Of a DNA stretch of 64,000 nt, positions 518-23,861 are shown in pieces. Both the position numbers and the translations under genes were made by a program. The number at the start of each line of letters is the position of its first letter. Position 1 is the first letter of the stretch. The stretch covers positions 83,752 to 147,751 of the forward strand of contig OZ240617.1 of assembly GCA_965198365.1 (NCBI GenBank), in the 5' to 3' direction. The notes beneath the pieces were generated by a model. That model worked only from the letters and a program-made list of their open reading frames with translations, had not been told where the DNA came from and did not search any database. This DNA comes from Candidatus Aldehydirespiratoraceae bacterium (GTDB taxonomy: Bacteria; Actinomycetota; Acidimicrobiia; Acidimicrobiales; Aldehydirespiratoraceae).

Positions 518-1918
518 ATGGCCACTGATCTTGAGATGTTCGTAGGGGCCGATGGCCGCGAAGAGCAGGTAAGGGAGGTGGAAGCCCGCATCGAAGCCGA
601 CGACATCCAGTACTTGTACTGCCAGTTCCTTTCCGTCACAGGACGGATCATGGGCAAAGGCATACCGGCCAAGCATTTCGGCATGATCGCCCGCAAAGGC
701 TTCCAACTCGTCTACGGCTCCACCGCGAATTTGTTCACCGACCGTCACGGTGAATACATCGGTTACGGGCCTGAGGCCCGCGAGTTGGTCGGCTTAGCCG
801 AACCTGAGACTTTCATGCCTTTGCCGTGGGACAGTCGCACGGCACGGGTTTGGTGCACGCTGTTTCGTGGGCGTGAGGAAGAAGTCGACGGCGGAGCTTT
901 CCTCACCTCGGACTGCAGAGGCAACCTCAAGCGCATCCACGCCGAGTTCGAAGCCAAGCACGGACTGCATCTTCGTGCGGGCTGCGAGCCGGAGATGATG
1001 TGGCTGCGAGCCGACGAACACGGCAAACCCACCGTTGAGGGTTTGACCAAGCCCAACTGCTACCACATCGATCAGTTCGCGGAGTTGCAACCGCTGATCC
1101 ACAAAGTGATCGAGTACTGCGAGGCGATGGGTCTCGACATGATCCAGGGCGACCACGAAGACGCCCCCGGGCAGTTGGAACTCAACTTCAACTTCGACCG
1201 GGCCGAACTCACCTCCGACCGGCTGAGCACTTACCGTCAGGTGTGTAAGCAGGTTGGCCGGGAGTTGGGTGCGTTTCCGTGCTTCATGCCCAAGCCCTTC
1301 ATGGGCGTGTCGGCCAATGGCTGCCACCACAACATTTCGTTGTGGGACGCAGACGGCAACAACAAGTTCATGCCCGAAGGAGACAACCCACAGTTGCCCG
1401 GTCCCATCGGCATGAAGGCCATCGGGGGGATCCTCGAACATGTCCGTGCACTCACCTGCTTGACATCACCTACCGTCAACTCCTACCGCAGGTTGTGGGA
1501 CACCGGCTTCTGGGCACCTGTGTTCGCCGACTGGGGATTCCAGAACCGCACCACCGCGCTGCGCGTCAGCGCGCCGGGACGCTTCGAGTACCGCTCGGTG
1601 GACAGTGCGGTGAATCCGGCTCTGTCGTTCGCCGGTCTGCTCAAGGCGATGGACGACGGCTTGGACCGCAGCCTCGACCCGGGTCAACCCGAGGAGCGCA
1701 ACATCTACGACGCCCTGAAGGAAGGCAAACAGGTCCAGAAGATCCCGCTCACCTTGGGCGAGGCGCTTGAGGCGTTCGACAGCGACGAGGTAGTCAAGTC
1801 GGCGCTCCCCGGCGAGATGTACAGGGTGTTCATGCACTACAAGACCGACGAATGGGAGCGGTTCCTGCACACCGTCTCAGACTGGGACGTCGAAGAATAT
1901 CTCGACGTCCTGCCCTGA
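518..1918 (+). CDS. gmaS: Gamma-glutamylmethylamide synthetase (glutamine synthetase superfamily)
   Basis: GS-family motifs (GCEPEM, DHEDAPGQLELNF, FMPKPF, NGCHHNISLW, NRT..LRV, EYRSVD). First gene before the mgsABC-type trio. Start moved to ATG 518 behind a GGGGAG RBS. Confidence 0.8.
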   Translation: MATDLEMFVGADGREEQVREVEARIEADDIQYLYCQFLSVTGRIMGKGIPAKHFGMIARKGFQLVYGSTANLFTDRHGEYIGYGPEARELVGLAEPETFMPLPWDSRTARVWCTLFRGREEEVDGGAFLTSDCRGNLKRIHAEFEAKHGLHLRAGCEPEMMWLRADEHGKPTVEGLTKPNCYHIDQFAELQPLIHKVIEYCEAMGLDMIQGDHEDAPGQLELNFNFDRAELTSDRLSTYRQVCKQVGRELGAFPCFMPKPFMGVSANGCHHNISLWDADGNNKFMPEGDNPQLPGPIGMKAIGGILEHVRALTCLTSPTVNSYRRLWDTGFWAPVFADWGFQNRTTALRVSAPGRFEYRSVDSAVNPALSFAGLLKAMDDGLDRSLDPGQPEERNIYDALKEGKQVQKIPLTLGEALEAFDSDEVVKSALPGEMYRVFMHYKTDEWERFLHTVSDWDVEEYLDVLP

Positions 1919-2002
1919 TCGGCGCTGCTTCGCCGGGCTTCGGCGGGCTTCGCCTATCCAACAACAATTCACATACATCAGAACAACTAGGGAGGTAGCA
2001 CC

Positions 2003-2932
2003 ATGTGCGGCATCGCAGGAGTGATCCACCGCGACGGCACGGCCGACATTGGCGCCGAATTGACGGCCATGTTGCAAGCAATGAAGCACCGAGGGCCGGA
2101 TTCCACCGGCTACGCGGTCTATGGACCAGCCGACGATCTTGTGGTTATCCGTTTCGTGCTCGCTGAACCGAACCGCAGTACCGGTTTCGGGATGGAGGAA
2201 CGTCTGGCGCGCAACCGGTTGGAGGTCGAGTCGCGGCTCGCCAAGATCGGTGCTGAAGTGGCCACGGTCACCAGCGACACCGGTTACGCCTTTCGGGCCA
2301 CGGTCCGTTACAGCGGCGAACTCAAACCGCTGGCCGACTACCTCGAGGACGTCCCGGGTTGTGAGGTGCTGTCGCTGGGCAACTCGCTGGAGATCATCAA
2401 GGACATGGGCGATGCGGCCACAGTGAGCGACCAATACGGTTTGGGCTCGTTTCAGGGGACTCACGGCGTTGGACATGTGCGCATGGCCACCGAATCTGAG
2501 GTTGACCTGGCCAGCGCCCACCCTTATTGGGCCTACCCGTTCGCCGATGTGGCTGTGGTCCACAACGGGCAACTCACCAACTATCACCAATGGCGCCGCC
2601 GCCTCGAGCAGGCAGGCCATCGTTTCCAAAGCGAGTGCGACTCTGAGATCATCGCGGTGTACTTGGCTGAGAAAATGTCGGGCGGGTTGTCGCTGGAGAC
2701 ATCCATGAAGGACAGTCTCGACGACCTCGACGGTGTGTTCACCTACGTGTGTGTCACCGGCAACGAGCTGGGGATCGCCAAAGATGAGATGGCGGCCAAA
2801 CCACTGGTGCTGTTCGAGTCTGACGATCTGGTGGCCGTGGCCACCGAGGAAGTGTCGATCCGTACTCTGGTCAAGCGCGAGGTTGAAACCCGCGATCCGT
2901 ACGAGCGGGAGGTGTTGGTGTGGCAAGTGTAG
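2003..2932 (+). CDS. mgsA: N-methylglutamate synthase subunit A (class II glutamine amidotransferase)
   Basis: N-terminal MCGIAG, HRGPDSTG, GHVRMATES, HNGQL and CDSE motifs; GGAGG RBS; operon context. Confidence 0.8.
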   Translation: MCGIAGVIHRDGTADIGAELTAMLQAMKHRGPDSTGYAVYGPADDLVVIRFVLAEPNRSTGFGMEERLARNRLEVESRLAKIGAEVATVTSDTGYAFRATVRYSGELKPLADYLEDVPGCEVLSLGNSLEIIKDMGDAATVSDQYGLGSFQGTHGVGHVRMATESEVDLASAHPYWAYPFADVAVVHNGQLTNYHQWRRRLEQAGHRFQSECDSEIIAVYLAEKMSGGLSLETSMKDSLDDLDGVFTYVCVTGNELGIAKDEMAAKPLVLFESDDLVAVATEEVSIRTLVKREVETRDPYEREVLVWQV

Positions 2933-3711
2933 GTTCGCGCAGCGGGGTCTCTTATGACGCTCGAGGCTTGGTCGAACCCCAGGCCGAGATGCCCGACAAC
3001 ATTGAGGTCGACGGCGGCAGGGCGCGCTTCGACGCCACCGACCTCACCATCCGCCAGATCAACATGGCCTTGCGGAAACTGATCTACAACGACGGCATAG
3101 TCGATGTGACAGTGCTCAACCCGTCCTCCAAGCATTCGCTGGCGGTTGGGATCTTGAAACGCTGTCGGATCCATTTCGAAGGCAGCCCCGGTTGGTTCGC
3201 CTGTGGCCTGATCGACGGGCCCGAGGTGACAATCAACGGACGAGTGGGCTGGTCGCTCTGCGAAAACATGATGTCGGGCGTGGTCGTGGTCGAGCGCGGC
3301 GCAGGCTCGCTCACCGGAGCCGCGATCCGCGGCGGTGACCTGATCGTGAAAGGCGATGTGGGCGCTCGCACTGGCATCGACCAGAAGGGCGGCACGATCA
3401 TCGTGATGGGCGATGTGGGGATCAACACCGGGTTCATGATGCAGCGGGGCCGTCAGATCATTTGCGGCAACGCCGGCCAGAACCTGGGCGACTCGATGTA
3501 TGACGGCGAGATTTACGTGGCAGGCAAGGTGAGTTCCTTGGGAGTCGACTGCGTAGCTGGCGAATGGACCGACGACGACACCGAGTTGATCGAACGCAAG
3601 TTCCGTATCCACGGGCTGGGAGAACCGCCGCCGTTCGAGAAGTTCGTTTGCGGCAAGCAACTACACAACTACGACGCACTTGAGCCCTCCGAGCGCAAGC
3701 TCGTGATGTGA
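2920..3711 (+). CDS. mgsB: N-methylglutamate synthase subunit B (GXGXG beta-helix, GltB C-terminal-like)
   Basis: Repeated GxxG/GxGxG motifs (ENMMSG, GAAIRGG, GIDQKGG, GFMMQRG, GDSMYDG); overlaps mgsA. Confidence 0.8.
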   Translation: MASVGSRSGVSYDARGLVEPQAEMPDNIEVDGGRARFDATDLTIRQINMALRKLIYNDGIVDVTVLNPSSKHSLAVGILKRCRIHFEGSPGWFACGLIDGPEVTINGRVGWSLCENMMSGVVVVERGAGSLTGAAIRGGDLIVKGDVGARTGIDQKGGTIIVMGDVGINTGFMMQRGRQIICGNAGQNLGDSMYDGEIYVAGKVSSLGVDCVAGEWTDDDTELIERKFRIHGLGEPPPFEKFVCGKQLHNYDALEPSERKLVM

Positions 3712-3747
3712 GCCCAGACAGCATCGAGAGAACATAAGGAGACGACG

Positions 3748-5142
3748 ATGAGCGAAGTGAACAAAAGCACAGATGTGTTGGGGCAGAGCCGGATCTTCAC
3801 CCGTGAGGTAATCAACGACATCCATGTGAAGGCCGAACTGGGCCGTTACCGAATGCGAGGCTTTTCGATCTTCAAGAAGATCCCGCATTGGGACGAGTTG
3901 GTGTTTCTGCCGGGAACCCTCACCCGATTCGTGATCGAGGGTTACCGCGAGAAGTGCGAAACAAAGACTGTGCTCGGGGCTCGTTTCGCGGCCAAGCCTC
4001 TGGAGCTCGACATTCCCGTGTACATCACCGGTATGAGCTTCGGTGCTTTGTCGTTGGAGGCCAAAATGGCTTTGGCGAAGGGCGCTTCGATGGCCGGCAC
4101 CGCTACTTGCTCAGGCGAGGGCGGCATGATCCCACCCGAACGGGACCTGTCGACCAAGTGGTATTACCAGATCATTCAGAGCCGCTACGGTTTCAACCCT
4201 CATCACCTGATGTTGGCTGACGCGGTGGAGTTCTTTATCGGCCAGGGCTGCAAGGTCGGCCTCGGCGGCCACTTGATGGGCCAGAAGGTCACCGAACAGG
4301 TGGCTGAGATGCGGTCTCTGCCAGCGGGTATCGATCAACGCTCACCGGCACGGCATCCCGACTGGCTCGGTCCCGATGATCTTTCGTTGAAGATCCAGGA
4401 AGTGCGTGAAGCGACCGACTATCAGATCCCGATCCAGTTGAAGCTGGGGTCGGCCCGTGTCTATGACGATGTACGCATGGCCGCCAAGTGTGGTCCTGAT
4501 GTGATCTATCTCGACGGTGCCGAAGGCGGGACTGGCGCCGGGCCGCATCTGGCTACCGAGGAGACCGGTATTCCGCTGATGGCGGCTATCCCCGAAGCTC
4601 GTCGGGCGCTTGAAGATGTGGGCCTCGCCGACGACATCGACCTGGTCGTCGCGGGTGGTATCCGCAACGGTGGCGATGTGGCGAAATGCCTAGCGCTCGG
4701 TGCCGACGCCATCGCTATCGGCACCGCCGCGCTGATGGCTCTCAACTGCAACAAGGAGATTCCCGGCGTTACCGACTATGAGGGCACGATTGGGGTGCCC
4801 GCCGGCGAGTGCTACCACTGCCACACTGGTCGTTGCCCGGTGGGTGTCGCCACCCAGGATGTGGAACTGCGTAAACGCCTCGATGTCGATGAGGCGGCGC
4901 TGCGGGTCTACAACTTCTTGCTCACGCTCACTATGGAAGTGCAGATGCTTGCTCGAGCGTGCGGCAAGACCGACATTCATTCGTTGGAACCGGAAGACCT
5001 CGCCGCTCTCACCTATGAGGCTGCGGCCATGGCCAAGGTGCCGTTGGCCGGCACCACTTACATTCCCGGTGTCACCGAGGAGAACACTCTGACCGAGATC
5101 CGGGAGCTGTTCGACAAACACGTGATCGATGGAGGCAACTGA
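3748..5142 (+). CDS. mgsC: N-methylglutamate synthase subunit C (FMN-binding glutamate synthase family)
   Basis: GMSFGALS, SGEGGM, GQGCKVGLGG, LDGAEGGTGA, GGIRNG and the Fe-S motif CxHCHTGRCPVGVATQ. Confidence 0.85.
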   Translation: MSEVNKSTDVLGQSRIFTREVINDIHVKAELGRYRMRGFSIFKKIPHWDELVFLPGTLTRFVIEGYREKCETKTVLGARFAAKPLELDIPVYITGMSFGALSLEAKMALAKGASMAGTATCSGEGGMIPPERDLSTKWYYQIIQSRYGFNPHHLMLADAVEFFIGQGCKVGLGGHLMGQKVTEQVAEMRSLPAGIDQRSPARHPDWLGPDDLSLKIQEVREATDYQIPIQLKLGSARVYDDVRMAAKCGPDVIYLDGAEGGTGAGPHLATEETGIPLMAAIPEARRALEDVGLADDIDLVVAGGIRNGGDVAKCLALGADAIAIGTAALMALNCNKEIPGVTDYEGTIGVPAGECYHCHTGRCPVGVATQDVELRKRLDVDEAALRVYNFLLTLTMEVQMLARACGKTDIHSLEPEDLAALTYEAAAMAKVPLAGTTYIPGVTEENTLTEIRELFDKHVIDGGN

Positions 5143-5143
5143 G

Positions 5144-5599
5144 ATGGCCGGATCGGCAAGCACGGGCGAGAGCCCATCGGAAATCCGCACTGTGGCGATC
5201 GACGCTGAAGTGTTGGCCGGTAAGCGTTTCCCTTATCAAGAGGACATTACGCTGGTGGCCGACATTGATTTGCTGGCTGCAACGCCCGGGCCCGATATCA
5301 ACTGGCTTGAGGACATCACTTTGTTGGAGGAAGACGGTATGCCGGCAGTGTTTGACCGCTATTCCAACTCGTTTCTGAAGATCTATTTCGATATTCCTGA
5401 GGGTTCCGAGGATGACATCGCCCGCAAGGTGCTGATCAGGCATCTCGTGGACGGGAATTCCTATGGCATCACCTTGAAGGACATCCACTGCAAGTTCCCG
5501 CAGGTGGAACTGGGGCCGTGGGTGGAAGAGTCGCGCATTGTGGGCGAAAACTGGAAACCGACAGAGCTTGAGGGTTGGAGTGCGCCACAGGCGCATTAG
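5144..5599 (+). CDS. Acidic protein of unknown function (151 aa) in the mgs operon
   Basis: GGAGG RBS inside the mgsC 3' end, ATG 1 nt after the mgsC stop; no recognised domain. Confidence 0.75.
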   Translation: MAGSASTGESPSEIRTVAIDAEVLAGKRFPYQEDITLVADIDLLAATPGPDINWLEDITLLEEDGMPAVFDRYSNSFLKIYFDIPEGSEDDIARKVLIRHLVDGNSYGITLKDIHCKFPQVELGPWVEESRIVGENWKPTELEGWSAPQAH

Positions 5600-5636
5600 G
5601 GCCCTAGGTCAAGCCAAGAACTAACAAGGAGCCGCA

Positions 5637-6968
5637 GTGAGTCTTCCCCGCAGTTCTCGCTATGTGATCATTGGTGCTGGTATTCACGGGTTGTCCACGG
5701 CTTGGAACTTGGCCCGTGATCTGCGTTCGTCGGGGCGCGGTTCAGGTGCCGATGTGGTCGTGATCGACAAGGCCGGTGTTGGCGCCGGTGCTTCCGGGAT
5801 TGCCTGTGGGGTGATCCGCAACAACTATTTTCAGCCGGCCATGCGTGAGCTGATGGCGCATTCGGTGGATGTGTGGGAGAGCGACCCGGAAGCGTTCTCG
5901 TACCATCCGGTGGGGTATTTGCAGATCAGCCATGAGGCGATGCATGAAGATGTTGCCTCGATCCATGCTCAACAGCAGGCCATTGGTTACGCCTCGACTT
6001 TCGTGGAGGGGGCTCTAGATTCTCGCCGTCACATGTTGGGAATATTCGACGATTGGCAGGCGCAGGGCATCACCAGCGTTCTGCACGAACATCGCGGTGG
6101 TTACGCCAACAACATGGCGTCGCTCAAGGGCCTGTTGGGCAAGGCGGAGGCTGAGGGTGTGTCGGTGGTTGGAGGCGTGTCGGTGATGGGTTTTGAGCGT
6201 GACGCTGCTGGGGCTGTGACTGACGTTGTCACCGATCGGGGCAGTGTCAGCTGTGATCATGTGGTGGTGGCGGTGGGGCCCTGGGTACAGAAGATTTGGG
6301 CCATGCTCGACTTGCCAACTGTCACTGATGTGCTCGGCCGCGACGGTCAGGTGCATCGACGTCCGACTTGGACCTACATGTGTTTGCAGGAGGGCACCCT
6401 GGAGGTCGACCCGGGCTATCTCATCGACAATGCCGGCAACATGCCGCCGGTGGTGCATATCGACACCGACGCGCCGCTGTATGACGCCGATGGCCTGGTC
6501 ACTGAGGGGCCTTGGGGGGTGTACTACAAGCCCGATTTCAATTTCGGTGGTGTACAGGGCGGTTATATGCCCTACGTGGTGGACAAGCCTTCAGATCAGG
6601 TGGCGGTCGATCCGTACGGCCCGGATTCACCGGATTTTATTGTCGGTGAGGATTTCTACCGCACTTGGTCTGCGGCGCTGGCTCATTGTCAGAAGCGTTT
6701 CGAGGGCAAGGGTCATCTGATGAGCCGTGAGCCCTCCGGTGGTATCGGCAGTTTCTCTCCCGACAATTTCCCGGTGTTCGACATGTTCTGCGACAATGTG
6801 TACTTCATCGCCGACTCGAACCACGGCTACAAGATGATCGGTGTCGGCGCGCTCGTGGCCAGAGAGCTGCTGGGTGAGTCTCAGGGGTTGCTGGCTCCGT
6901 TCTGTTGGTCGCGGTATGCCACAGGGGATCTGCACCCGGTGAGTAATTCGCCGTATCCGTGGAGCTGA
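5637..6968 (+). CDS. FAD-dependent oxidoreductase, sarcosine oxidase beta / DAO family; candidate N-methylglutamate dehydrogenase
   Basis: GAGIHG dinucleotide-binding motif, GASGIACG, SPDNFPV, SNHGYK; directly downstream of mgsABC. Confidence 0.75.
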   Translation: MSLPRSSRYVIIGAGIHGLSTAWNLARDLRSSGRGSGADVVVIDKAGVGAGASGIACGVIRNNYFQPAMRELMAHSVDVWESDPEAFSYHPVGYLQISHEAMHEDVASIHAQQQAIGYASTFVEGALDSRRHMLGIFDDWQAQGITSVLHEHRGGYANNMASLKGLLGKAEAEGVSVVGGVSVMGFERDAAGAVTDVVTDRGSVSCDHVVVAVGPWVQKIWAMLDLPTVTDVLGRDGQVHRRPTWTYMCLQEGTLEVDPGYLIDNAGNMPPVVHIDTDAPLYDADGLVTEGPWGVYYKPDFNFGGVQGGYMPYVVDKPSDQVAVDPYGPDSPDFIVGEDFYRTWSAALAHCQKRFEGKGHLMSREPSGGIGSFSPDNFPVFDMFCDNVYFIADSNHGYKMIGVGALVARELLGESQGLLAPFCWSRYATGDLHPVSNSPYPWS

Positions 6969-6980
6969 GGTGACTTGCAG

Positions 6981-7412
6981 ATGAACGTGACTGGTGGTTG
7001 TGCGTGTGGCGCGGTGCGGTTCACGTTGAACGGGCCGCTGCGGCCTGTGATCAACTGTCACTGTTCGCGCTGTCGGCGTTGGACGGGCCATTTCATGGCC
7101 GGCACGAACACGCACCGGGATGATCTGTCGTTCAATCGAGGTGTCGACTCGGTGAAGTGGTGGACTCCCGACGAGGAGCCGGCCGTGGCCTATGGGTTCT
7201 GCGCTCATTGCGGGGGCAGTCTGTTCTGGCGCTCGAGTTCCAAGCCTGGGAGATACTCGATCGCAGCCGGGGCTCTCGACCCGCCCACTGGTCTTGACAC
7301 GGTGCATGCCCTGTTCACGGCCGAGGCCAGCGACTACCACCGCCTCGACCCCGATCTCCCCCACCATCCCCACGATTCAGACGGCGGCGTCCAAATCGAA
7401 GGCTGGACATAA
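6981..7412 (+). CDS. GFA/CENP-V family Zn-binding protein
   Basis: GGCACG, CHCSRC and FCAHCG cysteine pattern; GAGGTG RBS. Confidence 0.85.
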   Translation: MNVTGGCACGAVRFTLNGPLRPVINCHCSRCRRWTGHFMAGTNTHRDDLSFNRGVDSVKWWTPDEEPAVAYGFCAHCGGSLFWRSSSKPGRYSIAAGALDPPTGLDTVHALFTAEASDYHRLDPDLPHHPHDSDGGVQIEGWT

Positions 7413-7429
7413 CCGTTCAGCGGCAAAAC

Positions 7430-7533: not shown

Positions 7534-8241
7534 GTGCTAATGCCCGATGAGCTTGAGCAACTGATCTCGCCAGCCCGTTTCCGCACCTTCGTTGAGTTCT
7601 CGTCGGGTGATCGGAAGGTTGCTGCCAAGCTGTACGAATGGACCGGTCATCTCGCCGGAGCGCTCTTTACGGACTTCCGTCACCTTGAGATCGTATTCCG
7701 CAACAAAGTTGACCAAGCGCTGATGGAATATGCCCGAACACACGATCCGGATGTCATGTCGTGGCTCGACGATTCCTGGCTCCCGGACCACACCAACGGC
7801 TGGGACGATGAGGCAAACAAGGCAATCGGAAAGGCCCGCGAGATGGCCCGCGGTCGTAACCCGTCCCATGATGCCGTAATTGCGCAGTTGATGTTCGGCT
7901 TCTGGAGATACGCGACGAAAGGCCGCTACGAGGAAGCTTTCTGGTTGCCAGCCTTAGATGGGGTGTTCACCAATATCCCTGGGGCGAACGCTGTCGAACG
8001 ACGAGTGACGTTAGAAACTGCGATGATCAATTTGAACAAGCTGCGGAATCGAATCGCTCACCATGAACCAATCTGCAAACCGTGGAAGAGGCGTACTCAG
8101 GGAGGTGTAGAACTCGTTCTCTCGGTTGACGATGTCTACAGGGATCTCGAGGATGTCCTTCGCTGGTGCGATCCATCTTCAAGCGTTCACTTCCTCAAAC
8201 AATCTCGTGTACCAGAACTCTTAGCAACACGACCGAGCTAG
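7534..8241 (+). CDS. Abi-like (Abi_2/AbiD-F) HEPN-domain protein
   Basis: LYEW...LEIVFRN, AQLMFGFW and the HEPN motif RNRIAHHEP. Confidence 0.8.
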   Translation: MLMPDELEQLISPARFRTFVEFSSGDRKVAAKLYEWTGHLAGALFTDFRHLEIVFRNKVDQALMEYARTHDPDVMSWLDDSWLPDHTNGWDDEANKAIGKAREMARGRNPSHDAVIAQLMFGFWRYATKGRYEEAFWLPALDGVFTNIPGANAVERRVTLETAMINLNKLRNRIAHHEPICKPWKRRTQGGVELVLSVDDVYRDLEDVLRWCDPSSSVHFLKQSRVPELLATRPS

Positions 8242-13968: not shown

Positions 13969-14101
13969 AAACCACCCTTAATATTAGTGGAACCATCCTT
14001 GAGAGTAGTGATAGTGTCGATAAATCTCGCCGAATTCCGCAGATATTTGCTTTTTGGCTACCAGAAACCGTCGCTCAAACCATCTACCGAATGGACTTAC
14101 G

Positions 14102-16282: not shown

Positions 16283-17166
16283 TGAGCATCCTCCTCGACG
16301 CAACCACGCCCGTGATCGTGCAAGGCATCACCGGGCGCATCGCCACGTTCCATACCGCCGATATGGCCGAGTACGGCACCAATGTCGTGGGTGGCGTCAC
16401 CCCAGGCAAAGGCGGCACCAAACACTGTGGAATGGATGTGTTCGACACCATGAAGCAGGCAGTGTCCGCCACTGAGGCCACAGCCAGCATCGTTTTTGTG
16501 CCTCCTCCGTTCGCGGCCGACGCCATCATGGAAGCGGCCGACGCCGGGATCGAGAACTGTGTGTGTATAACCGAAGGCATCCCAGTGCAGGACATGATCA
16601 AGGTGAAGCGCTATTTGCGCCGCTACCTGCACGCCAAACGGATGTGCTTGATAGGCCCCAATTGTGCGGGCGTGATCAGTCCGGGCAAAGCGATGATGGG
16701 CATCATGCCTTCGCACATTTACGAGCGGGGTCCGGTTGGCATCGTCAGCAGGTCGGGAACGCTCGGCTACGAGGCGGCGTCGCAGCTCAAGGCGGTGGGT
16801 ATCGGGGTGAGCACCAGTGTCGGCATCGGTGGCGATCCCATCAACGGGAGTTCGTTTCTCGACCACTTGAAGCGCTTCGAGAACGACAACGAGACCGAAG
16901 CGGTAGTGATGATCGGCGAGATCGGAGGGCTGCAGGAGGCGCAGGCCGCGGTCTACGCCCGTGAGCACATGCACAAGCCGGTGGTGGGTTACATTGCCGG
17001 TCTCACCGCGCCCAAGGGGCGCACCATGGGCCATGCGGGTGCGATTGTTTCCACCGTTGGGGAATCGGCCGCTGAGAAGGTTGAGATCATGCGCGACTGT
17101 GGTGTAACGATCGTGAAGCTGCCGTCCGATTTCGGCACCGTCGTGCCCAAGGTCCTGCGTCGCTGA
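16282..17166 (+). CDS. mtkB: Malate-CoA ligase alpha subunit
   Basis: VQGITG, GGVTPGKGG, GPNCAG, SRSGTLGYE, MGHAGA (phospho-His); coupled to mtkA. Confidence 0.8.
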   Translation: MSILLDATTPVIVQGITGRIATFHTADMAEYGTNVVGGVTPGKGGTKHCGMDVFDTMKQAVSATEATASIVFVPPPFAADAIMEAADAGIENCVCITEGIPVQDMIKVKRYLRRYLHAKRMCLIGPNCAGVISPGKAMMGIMPSHIYERGPVGIVSRSGTLGYEAASQLKAVGIGVSTSVGIGGDPINGSSFLDHLKRFENDNETEAVVMIGEIGGLQEAQAAVYAREHMHKPVVGYIAGLTAPKGRTMGHAGAIVSTVGESAAEKVEIMRDCGVTIVKLPSDFGTVVPKVLRR

Positions 17167-17167
17167 G

Positions 17168-19528
17168 TTAGGGCGCGGGAACGTCGCGGACTCGGGATTT
17201 GGTGGGGTCGTAGAAGGGGAATTGAACGACGGTTGCGGGGATGCGTTTTTGGTGACCGTCGATCTTGCCGACTTCGACTTGCGTGCCGATCTCTGCAAAT
17301 TCGACGGCCATGCGACACAACGCCACGTTCTTGCGCAGAGTCGGAGAGATAGTGCCGCTGGTTATCGAGCCCACCTGCGCTCGGCCCACGTAGACACCGT
17401 CGTCGAGCGCTGCGGGTTCTCCTCCTTGAAGTTCCAGACCAACTAAACGGCGCTGTGGGTTGTCTCTACGTTTCAGCAGCGCTTCTCGTCCGATGAAGTC
17501 GTCTTCTTTGGTCTTGAGCGGGACGGTGAAGCCGATGCCTGCTTCGTACGGGTCAGTCTGGTCGCAGAACTCATAGCCGGCGAAGATCAGGCCCGCCTCG
17601 ATGCGCAGGATGTCGAGCGCTTCGAGACCCATCGGCACGAGGCCGTGCTCGGCGCCGGCAGCAAAGACCGCGTCCCAGAGGGCTGGGGCGTTTGACGGGT
17701 GACAGAAGATCTCAAAGCCGAGCTCTCCGGTGTAGCCGGTGCGCGAGACGAGCAGGGATATGCCGTTGTGGTCGCCGATGCGGGCGATGGCGAAGCGGAA
17801 CCATCCGAGTTCGCTGACGTTGGGCTGGTCAGGGCGTGTCCAGATGATCTTTTCGAGGATCTTGCGGCTGTTGGGGCCTTGGACTTGCAGGTTGTGGAGC
17901 TGGTCGGTGGAGTCCTTGACCCAGGCCCGCAGGCCGCGTTCTTGTGCTTGTTGGCGTATCCAGAGGCCGCTGATGTCGCTGCCGCCGATCCAACGGAAGT
18001 TCTCACGGCTCAGGCGGAAGACCGTGCCGTCGTCGATCATGCCGCCGGTTTCGTAGCACATGGCTGTGTAGACGACCTGGCCGTCGGAGAGCTTGCGGAT
18101 GTTGCGGGTGACGCAGGTCTGCATCAGCAGTTCGGCGTCGGGGCCTGCGACTTCGTATTTACGCAAGGGCGAGAGGTCGATGGCGGCGGCTGCTTGTCGG
18201 CAGGCCCAGTACTCTTCGGTGGCGCCGTGATCGCGGTAGGAGTTGGCGAGCCAGTAGCCGTTGTATTCGCTGAAGTTGCGGGTGACCGCAGCGGTGCGAG
18301 GGTGAAAGCCTGTGTCTTTGGTGAGTTCGGCTTCTGAGTCGGCGGTCATGCGGAATGCGGTCGCTTTCTTGAACATGTTGTTCGCGGGGTAGACGCGAAC
18401 TTGAATATCGGTTGGGTACCAGCCGTTGGCTGCGTCGATGTCACATGGGCAGGCCGTCGACACGCATACGAGATCTTCCAATGCTCGCAGCAGCACGTAG
18501 TCGCCAGGTCGTGACCAGGGTTCATCGAAGTAGATCTGGTTGTTGTCGTCGACGTGGGTGTTGTAGAAGAAGTTGATGGCTTCCCAGCCTCGCCGGGCCG
18601 CCACACCGTAGGGGGACCAGACGGTGTTGATGTTGTCGGTGCAGTTGATGTGGCCGGGGAATCCCATCTCTTCGTAGTAGCGGGAGTTGCAGGCGGTGTT
18701 GAAGGTGTCGTGTCGCCCGACGGTGTCTTGCAAAACTTCAACGAGGGGTTGCATATCGGCGTTGTAGAACTTGGAATACAGCCCGGGACCGGGGCAGGTG
18801 GAACCCATCAGGGTTCGGGTGATGGTGCCGTCGAGGCAGTTGGCTTTGCCTTGTTCAAGGTCGCTGACAGCGAAACATTGAAAGTCTGAGCATTGGCGGC
18901 CTTCTACGTCGACCACTTGGAAGTAGTCGCCTTTGCGGACTTCGTAGGCTTTCCCGGTTGAGGCTTGGACAGTGAAGTCGTTTGTTGGGTCCGCTAGTGG
19001 GGCGGGCAGATAGATTTCACCGGGTTCGGGCAGCGAGGCGCGGTAGATGTAGACAATGAGGTCGGTTGGCGGGTTCTGGTCTTGGGGGTTCATCGGCCCG
19101 CCGGGGGCGGCTACGACCACCGCTATTGATTGCACCGCCGTGAAACTGGCTTTGCTGTCCGCTGGTGAATCAGCTCCGAACACCAGAGCGGGTCGGGCTT
19201 GGCTGAGATCAATGCCTCGTCGTTCGAGTCCAGCTCGGACCCGTCGAGCGTCGGTGAGTGGGGCGGACAGAATCGTACGGGTTCCGTTGCCTGAGTTGGT
19301 GTCGGCTGCGCTAGCCCCTAGTAGACCCGGGTCGCTCACCCCGTCAGCATCGAAGGCACTCAGCTCGCATTGCTGGCGACCTTCGGGGTCGATGATTTCG
19401 ATTCGGTCTCCGGCGTTGAGCGCTAACGCGGTGGCTCCGCCACCGGTTACTCGATATCGCTCGGTGCCCGGGTCGAGTAGCCACAAGCCGGGCTCAAGCA
19501 CTCGTGGCAATACAGAACTAATGCTCAT
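17168..19528 (-). CDS. tdm: Trimethylamine N-oxide demethylase (DUF1989 domain plus GcvT-like domain)
   Basis: 786 aa with GRQCSDFQ, RHDTFNTACN, GHINCTDN, ACPCDIDAANGW (metal-binding Cys/His pattern of Tdm), then the aminomethyltransferase part DLSPLRK, RTGYTGELG, RIEAG. Confidence 0.85.
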   Translation of the reverse strand: MSISSVLPRVLEPGLWLLDPGTERYRVTGGGATALALNAGDRIEIIDPEGRQQCELSAFDADGVSDPGLLGASAADTNSGNGTRTILSAPLTDARRVRAGLERRGIDLSQARPALVFGADSPADSKASFTAVQSIAVVVAAPGGPMNPQDQNPPTDLIVYIYRASLPEPGEIYLPAPLADPTNDFTVQASTGKAYEVRKGDYFQVVDVEGRQCSDFQCFAVSDLEQGKANCLDGTITRTLMGSTCPGPGLYSKFYNADMQPLVEVLQDTVGRHDTFNTACNSRYYEEMGFPGHINCTDNINTVWSPYGVAARRGWEAINFFYNTHVDDNNQIYFDEPWSRPGDYVLLRALEDLVCVSTACPCDIDAANGWYPTDIQVRVYPANNMFKKATAFRMTADSEAELTKDTGFHPRTAAVTRNFSEYNGYWLANSYRDHGATEEYWACRQAAAAIDLSPLRKYEVAGPDAELLMQTCVTRNIRKLSDGQVVYTAMCYETGGMIDDGTVFRLSRENFRWIGGSDISGLWIRQQAQERGLRAWVKDSTDQLHNLQVQGPNSRKILEKIIWTRPDQPNVSELGWFRFAIARIGDHNGISLLVSRTGYTGELGFEIFCHPSNAPALWDAVFAAGAEHGLVPMGLEALDILRIEAGLIFAGYEFCDQTDPYEAGIGFTVPLKTKEDDFIGREALLKRRDNPQRRLVGLELQGGEPAALDDGVYVGRAQVGSITSGTISPTLRKNVALCRMAVEFAEIGTQVEVGKIDGHQKRIPATVVQFPFYDPTKSRVRDVPAP

Positions 19529-19889
19529 CTGAGGAGGGGGTGGAGGCGGATACGACAGAGAACAGGTCCCATAACATCAGGATTGCCGCAGCGAGCGCAG
19601 CGAGAGCCACAATCACTGGACCGATGCCGACGTCAGGGGGGCCGGTGTCGGAGAGGTTGAGGATGGCTCGCCCGCCGACCGCTGCGGCGAAGCCGGCACC
19701 GGTCCATGCCGGCCGGAACTTGACTTGAATCAAGACCAGGGTGATGAGCAGGGCAAGGAAGACGACTTTGCCGTCGTCAACGGCAAAGCCTGTTGATGTC
19801 TTAGCGCCGCCGGTCTCCCAGGGAAGGAGTAGGGAGACAACGGCGATCACTAAGCAGAGCCGGGCCAAATGTAGACGGGTGAGCCTCAC
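19518..19889 (-). CDS. Small integral membrane protein (about 4 TM), coupled to tdm
   Basis: Hydrophobic ORF (LLLPW, GIGP motifs) overlapping the tdm start; start trimmed to GTG 19889. Confidence 0.65.
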   Translation of the reverse strand: MRLTRLHLARLCLVIAVVSLLLPWETGGAKTSTGFAVDDGKVVFLALLITLVLIQVKFRPAWTGAGFAAAVGGRAILNLSDTGPPDVGIGPVIVALAALAAAILMLWDLFSVVSASTPSSDEH

Positions 19890-19916
19890 GATTGGCTTAG
19901 CTTGGGGTGAGGGGTT

Positions 19917-19951
19917 GTAGGGGGTACATAAACGTGAACTGTACCCCCTAC
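19917..19951. promoter_or_regulatory. Perfect 12-bp inverted repeat (terminator or operator)
   Basis: GTAGGGGGTACA-11 nt-TGTACCCCCTAC between the amt mini-operon and the tdm operon. Confidence 0.5.
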
Positions 19952-19980
19952 CCCTTCTGGTGTCAGGCGCCTTTCTGGTG

Positions 19981-20112
19981 TCAGGCGCCGCCGACCAATT
20001 GGATACAGATGACGACGAAGACGATGCAAGCAATCGAGAAGATGACGACCGCCCTCTCTACGCCTTTGTCATGGCCTTGCATCTCGTCAAATTCAATTTG
20101 TTTTCCGGCCAT
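19981..20112 (-). CDS. 43-aa single-pass membrane microprotein (not in ORF track)
   Basis: Hand translation MAGKQIEFDEMQGHDKGVERAVVIFSIACIVFVVICIQLVGGA; GGAGG RBS in the upstream gene end, ATG 2 nt after its stop. Confidence 0.7.
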   Translation of the reverse strand: MAGKQIEFDEMQGHDKGVERAVVIFSIACIVFVVICIQLVGGA

Positions 20113-20114
20113 GT

Positions 20115-20345: not shown

Positions 20346-20375
20346 GTAGTTCTCCTTAGGTAAGTGAACGTTGAT

Positions 20376-20510
20376 TCAGTTCGTGTTGTCGTTGGTTCGG
20401 CCATCTGACTTCTGTTGTCTTCGCTTGCGAATCCCCCAGTACCCGGCGGTGGCAACCACCAGGTACATGAGTGCGATTGCTACGATGAACTGGAGCCATG
20501 TACCGGACAC
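20376..20510 (-). CDS. 44-aa single-pass membrane microprotein (not in ORF track)
   Basis: Hand translation MSGTWLQFIVAIALMYLVVATAGYWGIRKRRQQKSDGRTNDNTN; TM followed by a basic patch; GTG 5 nt after the amt stop. Confidence 0.6.
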   Translation of the reverse strand: MSGTWLQFIVAIALMYLVVATAGYWGIRKRRQQKSDGRTNDNTN

Positions 20511-20515
20511 TCTCG

Positions 20516-21901
20516 TTATTTGAGGTCGGCGTAGGCCGCTCGTAGCACGGCTTCGGCTGACTCTTCGGAACCGTCGGCGTTGATGATCGGTTCAGTGGCA
20601 CGGCCGAACTCCGGATAGAAGTCCGTCTCGAACTCGGCCATGTCGAGGCCCTCGATCTCTACTTCGGGTGGGACCCTCAGCAAGTTCAGCTTCTTGAGGA
20701 TTCCAGAACCGATGTAGCCGGTGAGGAATGCCAACGGGAAGAGGGTTGCGACACCCACGAGCTGACCAAGGAACGAGGTTTCCACCAGCGCTGCACCGGT
20801 CGGATAACCCCCGGCGACAATACCGACAAGTAGTACGCCCCACATGCCCATGACGCCGTGGACTGATATTGCGCCAACAGCGTCGTCGATGCGGGCTTTC
20901 TGCTCGATCCAGTTGCCTGCGGCATACGCAAGCCCGGCGGAGAAGAACGCCAGAATCAGGACCAGCGACGGGTTGTAGATATCGGCGCCGGCCGAAACTG
21001 CCACGACCCCGGCGAGTCCACCAGACAGTGTCCAGAACGGATCACCCTTGGCGAAGATGTACCCGCCGGCGAAGCCGCCTGCGAAGCCCATCGTGATCGT
21101 GAAGGTGATTGCTGACAGTGTCGCTGGGTTGAAGTAGATGTTTGCCCAACCCGGCGTGGTGTCGGCGGTGATCGCTAGACAAGCCGCGTAGAACGCGTAG
21201 AACGCCGTGAAGATGATCATCAGGCCCATCAACGTCAGATGGAGGTTGTGCGGCTTGAACGCTCGCGTGCCTCCGTTCCTGTCGTATCGGCCGAGTCTGG
21301 GACCCAAGTTGAAGATTATGCCTAAGGCGAAGATTCCGGCGATGCCGTGGACCACGCCTGATGCGGCGAAGTCGTGGTAGCCGAAGTGGATGGTCATCCA
21401 ACCTCCGTAGCTCCAGCCCCAGGCTGCCGCGACCACCCAGACCAGACCACCCATAAGAGCGGTCAGCCACAGGTAGGCCGAGATGCGGATGCGTTCGAGC
21501 ACCGCGCCCGACATGATCGAACCTGTCGTCCAAGAGAACAACACGAATGCGGCCCAGAAGACCCCACTAATGTTGTCGCCAAGGTTGGGTCCCATCGAGC
21601 CGTCCCATGGAACGCCGTAGCCGTCACCGCAGAAATACGCTCCTTCTCCCCCGGTGCCGTTCGGCGATGTGGTTGGCAAGAATCCTTCTTCCATACAGAA
21701 GTAGACCCACCACCCGAGGTAGTAGAACGTCGGTGTGACCACCGCGATTGTCATGATGTTCTTCATTGCCGTGGACATGATGTTCTTGCGGCGGCTTACG
21801 CCGGCTTCGTAGGTCATGAAACCCACGTGCAGCAACCACATGATCGCGACGGTGAAGAAGTAATAGGCCTCTGTGAACACTACTGACGTGTCCATAGGCA
21901 C
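20516..21901 (-). CDS. amt: Amt/Mep/Rh family ammonium or methylammonium channel
   Basis: GFMTYEAG..RRKN, GAVLERIR, HDFAASGVVHG, RIDDAVGAISVHG (twin-His). Confidence 0.88.
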   Translation of the reverse strand: MPMDTSVVFTEAYYFFTVAIMWLLHVGFMTYEAGVSRRKNIMSTAMKNIMTIAVVTPTFYYLGWWVYFCMEEGFLPTTSPNGTGGEGAYFCGDGYGVPWDGSMGPNLGDNISGVFWAAFVLFSWTTGSIMSGAVLERIRISAYLWLTALMGGLVWVVAAAWGWSYGGWMTIHFGYHDFAASGVVHGIAGIFALGIIFNLGPRLGRYDRNGGTRAFKPHNLHLTLMGLMIIFTAFYAFYAACLAITADTTPGWANIYFNPATLSAITFTITMGFAGGFAGGYIFAKGDPFWTLSGGLAGVVAVSAGADIYNPSLVLILAFFSAGLAYAAGNWIEQKARIDDAVGAISVHGVMGMWGVLLVGIVAGGYPTGAALVETSFLGQLVGVATLFPLAFLTGYIGSGILKKLNLLRVPPEVEIEGLDMAEFETDFYPEFGRATEPIINADGSEESAEAVLRAAYADLK

Positions 21902-22034
21902 ACCCCCAATTCTTCGTGCTAATTCCGACCTTATGGCCGGATATCGGTGACGTTAGCACAGAGGTAGCAAAGTGTCGAATGTCACCTGTGCTCTTTATGG
22001 CACTTTTAGCTGTTCAGCTAAGGTCTTCAGCTGT

Positions 22035-22412
22035 CTAGCTGCTGTCGGATTCGGTGATCTCCACCTCGATGACGGCACCGGTACCAGCGTCGATCCTCAC
22101 CGTTGCGTGGCCGAGGAAATCGGTGCGGGACCCATCGGGATCGGCAACGGTGAACACCACTATCCACACAGCCCGCGTCGGTATGCCTTGGCGCAACACT
22201 CTCGCTTCGGTTTTCTCGGGCTCGAAATAGTCATCCTCGGCCTCAAAGGCGGCTGTGGCGATCGATAGGGCTTCCTCTCGACTCAGATCGACTCCCGAGC
22301 AGCCACGGGTCACGAACACGACAACCAACAGCCCGGCAACGATGAATATCGCCTTGCGGGGAGTCATCCAGTTTTTGAGTTTGGCAATCCAGTTACTCAT
22401 CGGGCTGGTCAC
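22035..22412 (-). CDS. Membrane-anchored or exported hypothetical protein (PepSY-like)
   Basis: N-terminal hydrophobic helix, SREEALSIA, W.V and VRIDAGTG pattern. Confidence 0.55.
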   Translation of the reverse strand: MTSPMSNWIAKLKNWMTPRKAIFIVAGLLVVVFVTRGCSGVDLSREEALSIATAAFEAEDDYFEPEKTEARVLRQGIPTRAVWIVVFTVADPDGSRTDFLGHATVRIDAGTGAVIEVEITESDSS

Positions 22413-22621
22413 TTCGAGTCACTACGCGGCGCAGACACAAGACGCAAGACTATATACCCGACCACATGCGTGATTGCCACGAAGCTCACCCACCACAGAG
22501 TGATCTTGAGTCGGTAGCCCCGCTCTCGGCATTCCCAAAGTGTCAACAACACCGCCACGCCCAGAAACAACCACAGCACCAAGCTGTCGCGAGCGTCACC
22601 CACCAAGATCATCAGCCCCAT
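22409..22621 (-). CDS. Small two-TM hypothetical protein
   Basis: Two hydrophobic segments; 4-bp overlap with the next gene. Confidence 0.55.
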   Translation of the reverse strand: MGLMILVGDARDSLVLWLFLGVAVLLTLWECRERGYRLKITLWWVSFVAITHVVGYIVLRLVSAPRSDSK

Positions 22622-22712
22622 GGCTTGAGCCTAAACCACATGTGGGCGGGTAACCAGACCAACAAAAGTCTTCGGTGGTTGGTCGGGGGCTAACCGCCTG
22701 TGCGTATGCTGC

Positions 22713-23861
22713 TTGATGCCTGAGATCATGTTGGGGCCACGGGTTCGAAAATCGCCCTACTATGAGGCGACGGTGGCTGCCGGGGTCAGCGCTTTCACGA
22801 TCTACAACCACATGTATATGCCGATGTCGTACGGTGATGTGGCTGAAGAATATCGACGGCTGACTGAGCGGGTGGCGCTTTGGGACGTGGCCGCCGAACG
22901 CCAAATCGAGATTGTCGGCCCTGATGCTGCGCGCATCACCCAGTACCTTTCTGCTCGCAACCTGGCGGGTCTCAAAGGTGGTCGGGCTCGGTACGCGCCG
23001 ATCTGTGATCATGACGGCTACCTCATCAACGATCCGGTGGTGTTGTGTCTGGGCGATGATCGGTTCTGGTTTTCGATCGCGGACAGCGACCTCGGGTTTT
23101 GGGTTAGAGCCATCGCCAGGGAGCGTCGTGCCGATGTGCGGGTCTTTGAGCCGGATGTTTCGCCGCTGGCGATTCAGGGGCCGTCGGCTGAAGATCTTGC
23201 GATTGACCTGTTCGGTGCTGAAGTCGTTGGTCCGCTGGGGTTCTTTCACCATGTTGGCGTGGAACTCGACGGGATTGGTCTGGTGCTTTGTCGTTCTGGT
23301 TGGAGCAAGCAGAACGGTTTTGAACTTTTCTTGATGGACGGGTCTCGGGGTGTGGAGCTGTGGGACCGGGTGCTGGCCGCGGGCGCTCGGTTCGGGATTG
23401 GGCCAGGTGCGCCCAATGCGGCCGAGCGTATCGAAAGCGGTCTTCTGTCTTTTGGGTCCGACAACGATTCGCAGACCGATCCGTTCGAGGCGGGGCTTGG
23501 GGCGTGGGTGAACCTTGACGGTGAATACGACTTCGTCGGCAAGGCGGCTCTGCTGGAGCGGGTTGAGCGTGGCATCGAGCGCTCTTTGGTCAACGTTTCT
23601 TTCACCGACGGTTCGGGCTCGGCTGCGTCGCTGCCCCTGGAACATCCCCGTTCGGTGCGGTTGGACGGGCAGGTCGTGGGCGAGGTTCGCAACGCCATCT
23701 GGTCTCATCGACTGGGTCACGGGATCGGCATTGCTTTGGTACACCACTCAGCGACCACCCCCGGCACGCGCCTCGCTGTCGACATTGACGGCGTTGTGTG
23801 CTCTGTGGTCGTGGCCCCCGAGCCTTTCGGCACCCCCCGTCGGCCTATCTCGGCAACCTGA
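22713..23861 (+). CDS. GcvT-family THF-dependent demethylase, DmdA-like
   Basis: FTIYNHM, WDVAAERQIEI, NDPVVL, SIADSD, AIQGP, RSGWSKQ, GPGAPN..ERIES recall DMSP demethylase DmdA. Confidence 0.7.
   Translation: MMPEIMLGPRVRKSPYYEATVAAGVSAFTIYNHMYMPMSYGDVAEEYRRLTERVALWDVAAERQIEIVGPDAARITQYLSARNLAGLKGGRARYAPICDHDGYLINDPVVLCLGDDRFWFSIADSDLGFWVRAIARERRADVRVFEPDVSPLAIQGPSAEDLAIDLFGAEVVGPLGFFHHVGVELDGIGLVLCRSGWSKQNGFELFLMDGSRGVELWDRVLAAGARFGIGPGAPNAAERIESGLLSFGSDNDSQTDPFEAGLGAWVNLDGEYDFVGKAALLERVERGIERSLVNVSFTDGSGSAASLPLEHPRSVRLDGQVVGEVRNAIWSHRLGHGIGIALVHHSATTPGTRLAVDIDGVVCSVVVAPEPFGTPRRPISAT

Follow-up and report, generated by a model that had tools for sequence, protein, structure and literature searches.

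Trimethylamine (TMA), trimethylamine N-oxide (TMAO), dimethylamine (DMA) and monomethylamine (MMA) are abundant nitrogen and carbon currencies of marine animals and of seawater, and their use by bacteria has been worked out almost wholly in Proteobacteria. A stretch of 64,000 nucleotides from a Candidatus (Ca.) Aldehydirespiratoraceae bacterium (contig OZ240617.1, positions 83,752 to 147,751; here called the window) raises the question of whether an actinobacterium carries such a pathway and what it would do with the methyl groups. An earlier note, made from the sequence, had named tmm, tdm, gmaS, mgsABC, amt, sga, mcl, mtkAB and a DmdA-like gene between positions 518 and 23861; a listing of open reading frames (ORFs) together with Pfam and NCBIfam searches found all of them there. 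We conclude that the region is probably a catabolic island for methylated amines with an embedded serine-cycle block, carried by a sponge-associated member of the Acidimicrobiales. Positions without a prefix are those of the window, and positions written C1 are those of the genome's contig.

Genes for the use of trimethylamine, trimethylamine N-oxide and monomethylamine

Three of the steps expected of a methylated-amine pathway are represented by the following genes.

518..1918, plus strand: gmaS, gamma-glutamylmethylamide synthetase-type ligase, 466 aa (Gln-synt_C domain)
2003..2932, plus strand: mgsA, N-methylglutamate synthase subunit A-like, class-II amidotransferase (GATase_6/7, PF13522/PF13537)
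2920..3711, plus strand: mgsB, GXGXG subunit (PF01493)
3748..5142, plus strand: mgsC, FMN glutamate-synthase-domain subunit (PF01645, 314 bits)
5129..5599, plus strand: X, small acidic ORF of 156 aa, the fifth gene, after mgsC (recognized by conservation)
9547..10893, minus strand: tmm, trimethylamine monooxygenase, 448 aa (NF058570, 750 bits, cut-off 675)
17168..19528, minus strand: tdm, trimethylamine N-oxide demethylase, DUF1989 plus GcvT (NF053776, 1194 bits, cut-off 1100)
20516..21901, minus strand: Amt-family channel of a divergent subtype (PF00909, 208 bits; below NCBIfam cut-offs)

Tmm starts at an ATG at 10893 behind the sequence GGGGAG and aligned over its full length with the solved bacterial flavin-containing monooxygenase (FMO)/Tmm structures 8b2d, 2vq7, 5ipy and 6kbw (551-667 bits). 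It carries the FAD motif GAGPCG at residue 8, the FMO motif FGGTLMHAHDF at residue 179 and the NADPH motif GSSYSA at residue 204. Tdm contains PF09347, PF01571 and PF08669 in the expected fusion architecture of ~780 aa, and its residues 20-781 matched 9q59, "trimethylamine N-oxide demethylase," at 915 bits. By family membership, Tmm would oxidize TMA to TMAO, and Tdm would convert TMAO to DMA and pass a one-carbon unit through its GcvT domain to tetrahydrofolate (THF), giving methylene-THF. The control genome of Corynebacterium glutamicum also exceeded the cut-off of the Tmm model NF058570, so Tmm-like FMOs are not confined to Proteobacteria and Acidimicrobiia. Production of TMA inside the cell from carnitine by CntA was considered and rejected; the genome holds no CntA equivalog, only three GbcA-like Rieske oxygenases that score below cut-off.

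The divergent Amt-family protein keeps both pore histidines (in DFAASGVVH and SVHG) and has TAFYAFYAA where the canonical Amt paralogue of the same genome (C1:3658776-3660260) has GWFGFNAGS. In most acidimicrobial loci, an Amt gene of this divergent kind adjoins tdm; many proteobacterial loci have one in that place too, at 41-47% identity. Its product may be a transporter of methylated amines or of ammonium.

The genes gmaS, mgsA, mgsB and mgsC lie on one strand with short gaps, an arrangement that is kept across phyla, and gmaS begins with an ATG at 518 preceded by a GGGGAG ribosome-binding site. The ligase scored below the NCBIfam cut-off for TIGR03105 (315 versus 469.6 bits) and matched glutamine synthetases (GS) and a "glutamate--methylamine ligase" structure about equally, and its active site was examined for residues that distinguish the two enzymes. 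RhGmaS lacks the ammonium-handling Asp50′ and the Glu-flap Glu of GS, with Ala48′ and Trp300 instead, and has the catalytic residues Asp177 and Glu186 (PMC7948447). Aligned to B. subtilis GS, the window ligase has Tyr for Asp53′ and Trp for the Glu-flap Glu304 (compare Trp300 of RhGmaS), and it retains the equivalents of Asp177 and Glu186 in the stretch QGDHEDAPGQLELN. Because the published active-site signature is present, the ligase is GmaS-type as judged from these residues. In marine Alpha- and Gammaproteobacteria, the ligases of gmaS-mgsABC operons that adjoin tdm are 61-63% identical to it and likewise fall below the TIGR03105 cut-off (295-307 bits), which places the window ligase in a distinct subfamily shared with them.

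MgsABC has no dedicated curated model; its three-protein architecture was recognized from Pfam domains. MgsA, MgsB and MgsC are 55-59%, 56-63% and 76-81% identical, respectively, to most of their proteobacterial operon partners. X matched no Pfam or NCBIfam family, its AlphaFold model was weak (pLDDT of 56.8), and Foldseek returned no fold match with an E value below 0.7. Homologues of X follow mgsC at 70-95% identity in Acidimicrobiia and at ~30% identity in the alpha- and gammaproteobacterial loci checked (18072-18488 in L092 and 3590-4000 in L055), and an alignment of them shows the invariant motif NWLED...AVFDR. X looks like an unrecognized fifth gene of the gmaS-mgsABC operon. By family membership, the GmaS-type ligase and MgsABC, together with X, would convert MMA to N-methylglutamate.

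A paralogous cluster of GS-like and mgsABC-like genes is present elsewhere in the genome (C1:705701-710130), with 28%, 36%, 37% and 52% identity to the window genes.

A serine-cycle block between tdm and tmm

Between tdm and tmm lie four genes that would act on malate and glyoxylate.

12874..13968, minus strand: "sga," AGXT-family class-V aminotransferase acting on glyoxylate (Aminotran_5)
14054..15040, plus strand: mcl, malyl-CoA lyase (HpcH_HpaI)
15110..16282, plus strand: mtkA, malate-CoA ligase beta subunit (NF010647, 668 bits, cut-off 604)
16282..17166, plus strand: mtkB, malate-CoA ligase alpha subunit (CoA_binding and Ligase_CoA; its start overlaps the mtkA stop)

With MtkA above its model's threshold, the identities proposed earlier for Tmm, Tdm and MtkA are all borne out by curated equivalog cut-offs. 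The genome has its own sucCD at 3.40 Mb (sucC at C1:3398965-3400155), 39% identical to MtkA and 50% identical to MtkB; since this separate housekeeping pair is present, mtkAB is an extra copy. Mcl matched 5ugr, "malyl-CoA lyase/beta-methylmalyl-CoA lyase," at 436 bits and 4l9y, "malyl-CoA lyase," at 318 bits, compared with 129 bits for a citrate lyase beta chain. It scored below the cut-off of the only NCBIfam malyl-CoA lyase model, which is haloarchaeal. By family membership, MtkAB and Mcl would split malate into acetyl-CoA and glyoxylate.

The name sga fits its gene in part. The product is a glyoxylate aminotransferase of the AGXT type, with alanine-glyoxylate aminotransferase 1vjo as its best structural match (299 bits) and only 145 bits to the serine-glyoxylate aminotransferase 6pk1; it was below cut-off for every NCBIfam model that it matched, BhcA included. 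That serine is the amino donor, as the name implies, is not readable from the sequence.

The rest of the cycle was sought across the genome. Among the companion genes to which the earlier note had pointed, ppc (1010 bits), glyA (572 bits, cut-off 335), a glycerate kinase, folD and fhs were found. ppc lies ~16 kb upstream of the window and ~30 kb from the serine block. The glycerate kinase is of class I (PF02595, 248 bits, cut-off 168); a kinase of the MOFRL type was looked for and is absent from the genome. folD (C1:1140611-1141501, by Pfam) and fhs (C1:1143757-1145439, 809 bits) are located a few kilobases upstream of a gene for a dimethylglycine dehydrogenase (DMGDH)-like fusion protein at C1:1149567. 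icl was also present (348 bits), and enolase was recognized by a motif match only. Two of the expected companions could not be placed. The genome encodes six D-2-hydroxyacid dehydrogenases, none of which reached the cut-offs for glyoxylate/hydroxypyruvate reductase, so no hydroxypyruvate reductase can be named, the first candidate being the one at C1:911093-912106; the other, the heme subunit family of dimethylamine monooxygenase, is taken up below. A role for Mcl in the ethylmalonyl-CoA pathway was rejected, the best match to Ccr being 74 bits against a cut-off of 378; with no Ccr, Icl would regenerate glyoxylate. The genes found suggest an icl+ serine cycle that is nearly complete, without a nameable hydroxypyruvate reductase.

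A DUF1015 gene and an MTHFR-like gene are grouped with folD and fhs.

Distribution and phylogeny of the island

It had been suggested that such a combination is unusual outside Proteobacteria, and the distribution upholds this in one respect. Of 401 genomes sampled evenly from the class, 6 had Tdm, 5 had Tmm and 4 had MtkA above the equivalog cut-offs, which makes Tmm and Tdm rare at this level. On the other side stand an old acidimicrobial Tdm clade, relatives in many marine metagenome-assembled genomes (MAGs) and the frequency of MtkA in the window's own family, where it was above cut-off in 32 of 106 genomes (13 of 17 in the window's own genus). Numerous relatives of Tmm and Tdm, 63-80% identical, came up in protein searches, some of them from pelagic Tara data; those with an organism name were all Ca. 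Poriferisodalis, Acidimicrobiales, Acidimicrobiaceae or Actinobacteria MAGs, apart from one copepod assembly record. The Tdm proteins of these relatives are deposited as "DUF1989 domain-containing protein," so surveys based on gene names would miss acidimicrobial Tdm.

A Tdm phylogeny, one of the checks proposed in the earlier note, was obtained as a quick maximum-likelihood tree of 70 sequences from named genomes. Twenty-eight acidimicrobial sequences, pelagic ones included, formed one clade (SH-aLRT of 94), sister to an alpha/gammaproteobacterial clade. This single clade suggests that the pathway is old in the order and not a recent import, and a recent transfer of tdm from Proteobacteria was rejected on the same grounds. 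One locus titled "uncultured Acidimicrobiia bacterium" (L061) stands apart: its Tdm nests in a gammaproteobacterial clade, and the gmaS-mgs genes that it carries are proteobacterial in type. The probable explanation is a binning error or a separate transfer.

To compare gene order, window proteins were searched by tblastn against 80 named Tdm loci. The core order in sponge-associated Acidimicrobiia is amt-(small ORF)-tdm-tmm-DAO395-(GFA)-DAO443-X-mgsC-mgsB-mgsA-gmaS, in which DAO395, DAO443 and GFA are genes described in a later section. The sga/mcl-mtkA-mtkB block was found between tdm and tmm at 10 independent loci, all from sponge-associated Acidimicrobiia, and at 0 of 44 loci from outside the acidimicrobial Tdm clade; sga is divergent from mcl-mtkAB in 10 of the 10. 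These loci fall into two groups. The first is the window's own clade (L026, L027, L028 and L057), and the second comprises six loci that group with Ca. Aldehydirespirator sp. (L035, L036, L037, L039, L040 and L069; the titles of three of them say no more than Acidimicrobiaceae or Acidimicrobiales).

Beyond Acidimicrobiia, MtkA has its nearest relatives in Gammaproteobacteria (Arenicellales and others; 76% identity), and an Arenicellales contig carries ppc/mcl-mtkA-mtkB beside MttB-family and DMGDH-like genes. From these neighborhoods, the serine block looks like a mobile unit that tends to adjoin enzymes releasing methyl groups.

Proposed route and fate of the methyl groups

Following the steps assigned above to Tmm, Tdm, the GmaS-type ligase and MgsABC, N-methylglutamate would be oxidized by DAO443 or by a distant SoxB/SoxA-like enzyme, yielding glutamate nitrogen and a second one-carbon unit, and the divergent Amt-like channel would import amines or ammonium. 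Methylene-THF could either be oxidized via FolD and Fhs or be joined to glycine by GlyA to give serine, the glycine being supplied by the AGXT-type aminotransferase through amination of glyoxylate. Carbon would return to malate through glycerate, phosphoenolpyruvate and oxaloacetate, and ppc, glycerate kinase, enolase and icl would close an icl+ cycle. DMA would be released or taken by another enzyme, for which DAO395 is a candidate. We infer from this gene content that carbon assimilation through the island is plausible.

Several findings weigh against this interpretation. The ligase falls short of the TIGR03105 cut-off, the aminotransferase resembles alanine-glyoxylate enzymes more than plant-type serine-glyoxylate aminotransferases and has a donor that sequence does not disclose, and hydroxypyruvate reductase has no nameable gene. 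The roles given to DAO443, DAO395, X, the GFA protein and the Amt-like channel are read from position alone. The serine block is also variable. Its presence on the Tdm tree requires at least four gains or losses, and by MtkA it is missing from 4 of the 17 genomes of the same genus, including one (G271) in which tmm and tdm are 121 bp apart and MtkA is lacking. Given this variability, the co-location could reflect an insertion hot spot.

Several of these findings would also fit an island that serves nitrogen and energy supply only, with methyl groups oxidized to formate via FolD and Fhs, nitrogen retained and the block acting as an independent C2/glyoxylate-glycine module (one that makes glycine from malate, for instance) that came to lie between tdm and tmm in a cell with no working serine cycle. 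For marine heterotrophs that have tmm, tdm and gmaS, methylated amines are typically a source of nitrogen and energy, and both folD and fhs are present here. The patchy block, absent from G271 and three more genomes of the genus, the AGXT-type aminotransferase and the unplaced hydroxypyruvate reductase point the same way. However, two separate subclades carry the block at one and the same site, between tdm and tmm; the genome also contains ppc, glyA, glycerate kinase, enolase (by motif only) and icl; and Arenicellales also link ppc/mcl-mtkAB to methyl-group demethylases. We regard a purely nitrogen- and energy-yielding island as a possible explanation, though an unlikely one.

A broader claim can be framed, namely, that sponge-symbiotic Ca. 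Aldehydirespiratoraceae are the first serine-cycle actinobacteria growing on methyl groups of host-derived TMA, TMAO and methylamine, that their block came from Gammaproteobacteria and that DAO395, DAO443 and X replace Dmm and Mgd. Taken as a whole, we consider this claim doubtful. To our knowledge, known actinobacterial methylotrophs use the ribulose monophosphate pathway, and assimilation by the serine cycle would be the first there.

The dimethylamine step

Returning to the methylated-amine island with its embedded serine block, the route had been described as near-complete. This holds for the steps that use TMA, TMAO and MMA. It does not hold for the step that uses DMA, nor for the canonical mgdABCD, which are not in the cluster. 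PF11927, which we take to be the heme PAS subunit family of HODM/Dmm-type dimethylamine monooxygenase, had no match in the window's own genome or in nine other acidimicrobial genomes with Tdm. That search did find the family, at 243 bits, in a Thalassobaculaceae (alphaproteobacterial) genome used as a positive control. By this measure, the known dimethylamine monooxygenase is missing genome-wide, and DMA is therefore expected to be released or handled by another enzyme. SAR11 bacteria reportedly have a truncated route without Dmm, for which DMA release was proposed (Lidbury et al., 2017).

The genes that could bear on DMA and on N-methylglutamate are the following.

5637..6968, plus strand: DAO443, FAD-dependent oxidoreductase (PF01266, 119 bits; soxB model only 68 bits)
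6975..7412, plus strand: GFA-domain protein of the glutathione-dependent formaldehyde-activating enzyme family (PF04828, 73 bits)
8340..9527, minus strand: DAO395, flavoprotein of the FAD amine-oxidase family (PF01266, 219 bits)

Sox-like mgdABCD genes were found neither in the cluster nor at the related loci, except for a SoxA-like gene at one of these (L043). The genome encodes a SoxB-like (471 bits, cut-off 529) and SoxA-like (827 bits, cut-off 1164) pair at C1:781808-786302, ~0.6 Mb beyond the window. Within the island, DAO443 is a candidate enzyme for N-methylglutamate oxidation. In the acidimicrobial loci that hold it, DAO443 adjoins X and mgsC, the two genes DAO443 and X being positioned after mgsC; it had no relative in the Protein Data Bank (PDB) at 1e-8. 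The GFA gene is present in eight of the related loci.

DAO395 is a candidate secondary-amine oxidase. Its best NCBIfam match is N-methyl-L-tryptophan oxidase (133 bits, below cut-off), and its best PDB match is 1y56_B, "sarcosine oxidase" (128 bits). Because these nearest families oxidize secondary N-methyl amines, DAO395 is a candidate for the enzyme that acts on DMA. Its ATG lies 19 nucleotides after the tmm stop codon, a spacing that suggests cotranscription with tmm, and copies 57-97% identical follow tmm in sponge-clade loci; none was found in pelagic Acidimicrobiales or in Proteobacteria.

These observations raise the alternative that the route is complete, with a nonorthologous flavoprotein (DAO395, or DAO443 with X) oxidizing DMA to methylamine in place of DmmDABC. 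The absence of the Dmm heme family from 10 of the 10 acidimicrobial Tdm genomes searched would then be explained, and the conservation of DAO395 next to tmm in most sponge-clade loci and its affinity to enzymes of secondary N-methyl amines agree with such a role. However, the pelagic acidimicrobial loci lack DAO395, as do Ca. Aldehydirespirator loci in which tmm, tdm and the serine block are present, so it is a dispensable partner. In addition, SAR11 offers a precedent for losing Dmm and releasing DMA, and we know of no dimethylamine oxidase of the DAO family. A complete route by way of these flavoproteins thus appears improbable.

The genome is otherwise rich in enzymes that harvest methyl groups (C1:1140611-1152122, C1:1170434-1174312 and C1:1395324-1400253). 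It encodes four DAO-GcvT fusion proteins of 824-857 aa that are DMGDH-like, and one of the three GbcA-like Rieske oxygenases below cut-off is encoded directly upstream of such a fusion protein.

Host and assembly

The earlier impression of an acidimicrobial host is supported by three lines of evidence. WhiB genes occur in the host genome, two of them backed by Pfam and one more by a motif match only. Its RpoB aligned in one stretch, at ~1500 bits, with a group of RNA polymerase beta-subunit structure entries, which we take to be mycobacterial and Streptomyces entries, compared with 1085 bits in two stretches for a chain labeled E. coli. The loci with the most similar Tdm (89-99% identity) bear the titles Acidimicrobiales bacterium (Langseth MAG), Acidimicrobiaceae bacterium RHO3_bin_4 and Ca. 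Aldehydirespiratoraceae bacterium, and the taxonomy lineage places Ca. Aldehydirespiratoraceae in the Acidimicrobiales. A comparative study found that this family contains a sponge-symbiotic lineage (PMC11706023). The assignment to a sponge-associated actinobacterium of the Acidimicrobiales is supported by these markers and relatives.

The source genome is a single 3.75-Mb contig with a GC content of ~0.60 that is uniform across the methylamine region and the genome, and the island's gene order is shared by at least 10 independent MAG records drawn from different studies, among them complete chromosomes of several Ca. Aldehydirespiratoraceae and Poriferisodalis MAGs. That the cluster is proteobacterial DNA misplaced in an actinobacterial bin or assembly, as its best-known occurrence in Proteobacteria and the seemingly mislabeled bin of L061 might suggest, is effectively refuted by the contig, its even composition, the conserved order in those chromosomes and the separate acidimicrobial Tdm clade (SH-aLRT of 94). 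Misassembly, or a contig that is itself proteobacterial, was ruled out by the same observations and the actinobacterial markers.

Comparison with known systems

The proteobacterial route, as described for Methylocella silvestris, Ruegeria pomeroyi and Aminobacter sp. NyZ550, consists of Tmm, Tdm, DmmDABC, GmaS, MgsABC and MgdABCD (PMC13199381). The island resembles it in having Tmm and Tdm above their cut-offs, a GmaS-type ligase, a tripartite MgsABC and an Amt-family gene beside tdm, with folD and fhs in the genome. It differs in its actinobacterial host, in the genome-wide lack of DmmDABC and in a cluster without mgdABCD, where DAO443, X and the GFA protein are found in place of them. The ligase below the TIGR03105 cut-off and the extra ORF X after mgsC are further differences. 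The serine-cycle genes of the window lie inside the amine cluster and not in a separate operon; those of Aminobacter are in operons II and IV (PMC13199381).

Alphaproteobacterial serine-cycle sets such as that of Methylobacterium comprise sga, hpr, mtkAB, ppc, mcl, gck and glyA. The window shares with them mcl-mtkA-mtkB as one unit beside a glyoxylate aminotransferase, and the genome supplies ppc, glyA and glycerate kinase, with icl available. Unlike these sets, the window block has no hpr or gck, the kinase is of class I, the aminotransferase is AGXT-type, ppc is ~30 kb away, and no SecR-like regulator was seen.

Possession of tmm, tdm and gmaS without dmmDABC, which predicts a block at DMA, recalls the truncated route of SAR11. 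The island differs from that route in its phylum, the symbiotic lifestyle of the host, the adjacent extra flavoproteins and the embedded serine-cycle block. The pelagic Arenicellales loci L119 and L120 share the order mcl-mtkA-mtkB, contain the MtkA closest to the window's outside Acidimicrobiia (76% identical) and have MttB and DMGDH-like neighbors. In contrast to the window, ppc is adjacent in those loci, there is no tmm or tdm within 10 kb, and a PALP enzyme rather than an AGXT-type aminotransferase lies beside the block. The island is a variation on a known pathway, in a lineage that has been little studied.

In the literature library that was searched, no paper ties Acidimicrobiia, sponges and methylated amines together. 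In one sponge study, FMO transcripts were attributed to Actinobacteria, and tdm and dmm were assigned to Alphaproteobacteria (PMC9999580). Our results suggest that marine and sponge-associated Acidimicrobiales are a second major lineage with an old, self-contained version of the pathway, and the serine block embedded between tdm and tmm points to a possible entry of host-derived methyl groups into symbiont biomass. DAO395, DAO443 and X are concrete candidates with which to follow the fate of DMA in bacteria lacking Dmm; if the flavoproteins do replace Dmm, they would offer a candidate answer to how Dmm-less marine bacteria handle DMA.

Neighboring genes and other features

The remaining features in and beside the island are the following.

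7534..8241, plus strand: Abi-like ORF (weak Abi_2 match, E value of 5.6e-4)
11078..12830, plus strand: ABC-2 type transporter pair, ATPase and permease, exporter (ABC_tran and ABC2_membrane)
19518..20033, minus strand: small hydrophobic membrane ORF upstream of tdm (from its hydrophobic translation; true start probably further in)
22035..22412, minus strand: PepSY-domain protein (PF03413, 24 bits; conserved beside amt in relatives)
22713..23861, plus strand: DmdA-like THF-dependent aminomethyltransferase (GCV_T and GCV_T_C domains)

The ABC-2 pair was found only in the two closest, 99%-identical relatives (L026 and L057), in which it is 97-98% identical, and the Abi-like ORF has a homologue in 0 of the 80 related loci. 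These distributions indicate that both are later insertions, and the Abi-like ORF is probably outside the pathway. The small ORF upstream of tdm matched no Pfam or NCBIfam family and is kept only in the nearest relatives, at 50-97% identity. The DmdA-like gene is likewise conserved in the nearest relatives only; its product scored 358 bits against a cut-off of 410 for NF009133, and thus its membership in the dimethylsulfoniopropionate (DMSP) demethylases is not supported. Scans of the window for tRNAs and Rfam families returned nothing.

A gene for an AAA_14 plus DUF4143 ATPase is present three times in the genome. Two copies are head to head directly upstream of gmaS, just outside the window (C1:80137-83751; L014 17386-20000), and the third is next to fhs (C1:1145727-1147016). 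Downstream of the island, positions 24793-36569 encode a Schlafen/AlbA_2 plus HATPase_c_4 protein, a PMT_2/GT87 glycosyltransferase and an N6_N4 DNA methylase, followed by two giant SLH-anchored surface proteins, one of 1011 aa with ~20 RCC1 repeats and one of 1174 aa with eight FN3 domains. The stretch from 26 to 38 kb has a strong strand skew, with GC skew up to 0.25 and AT skew down to -0.31.

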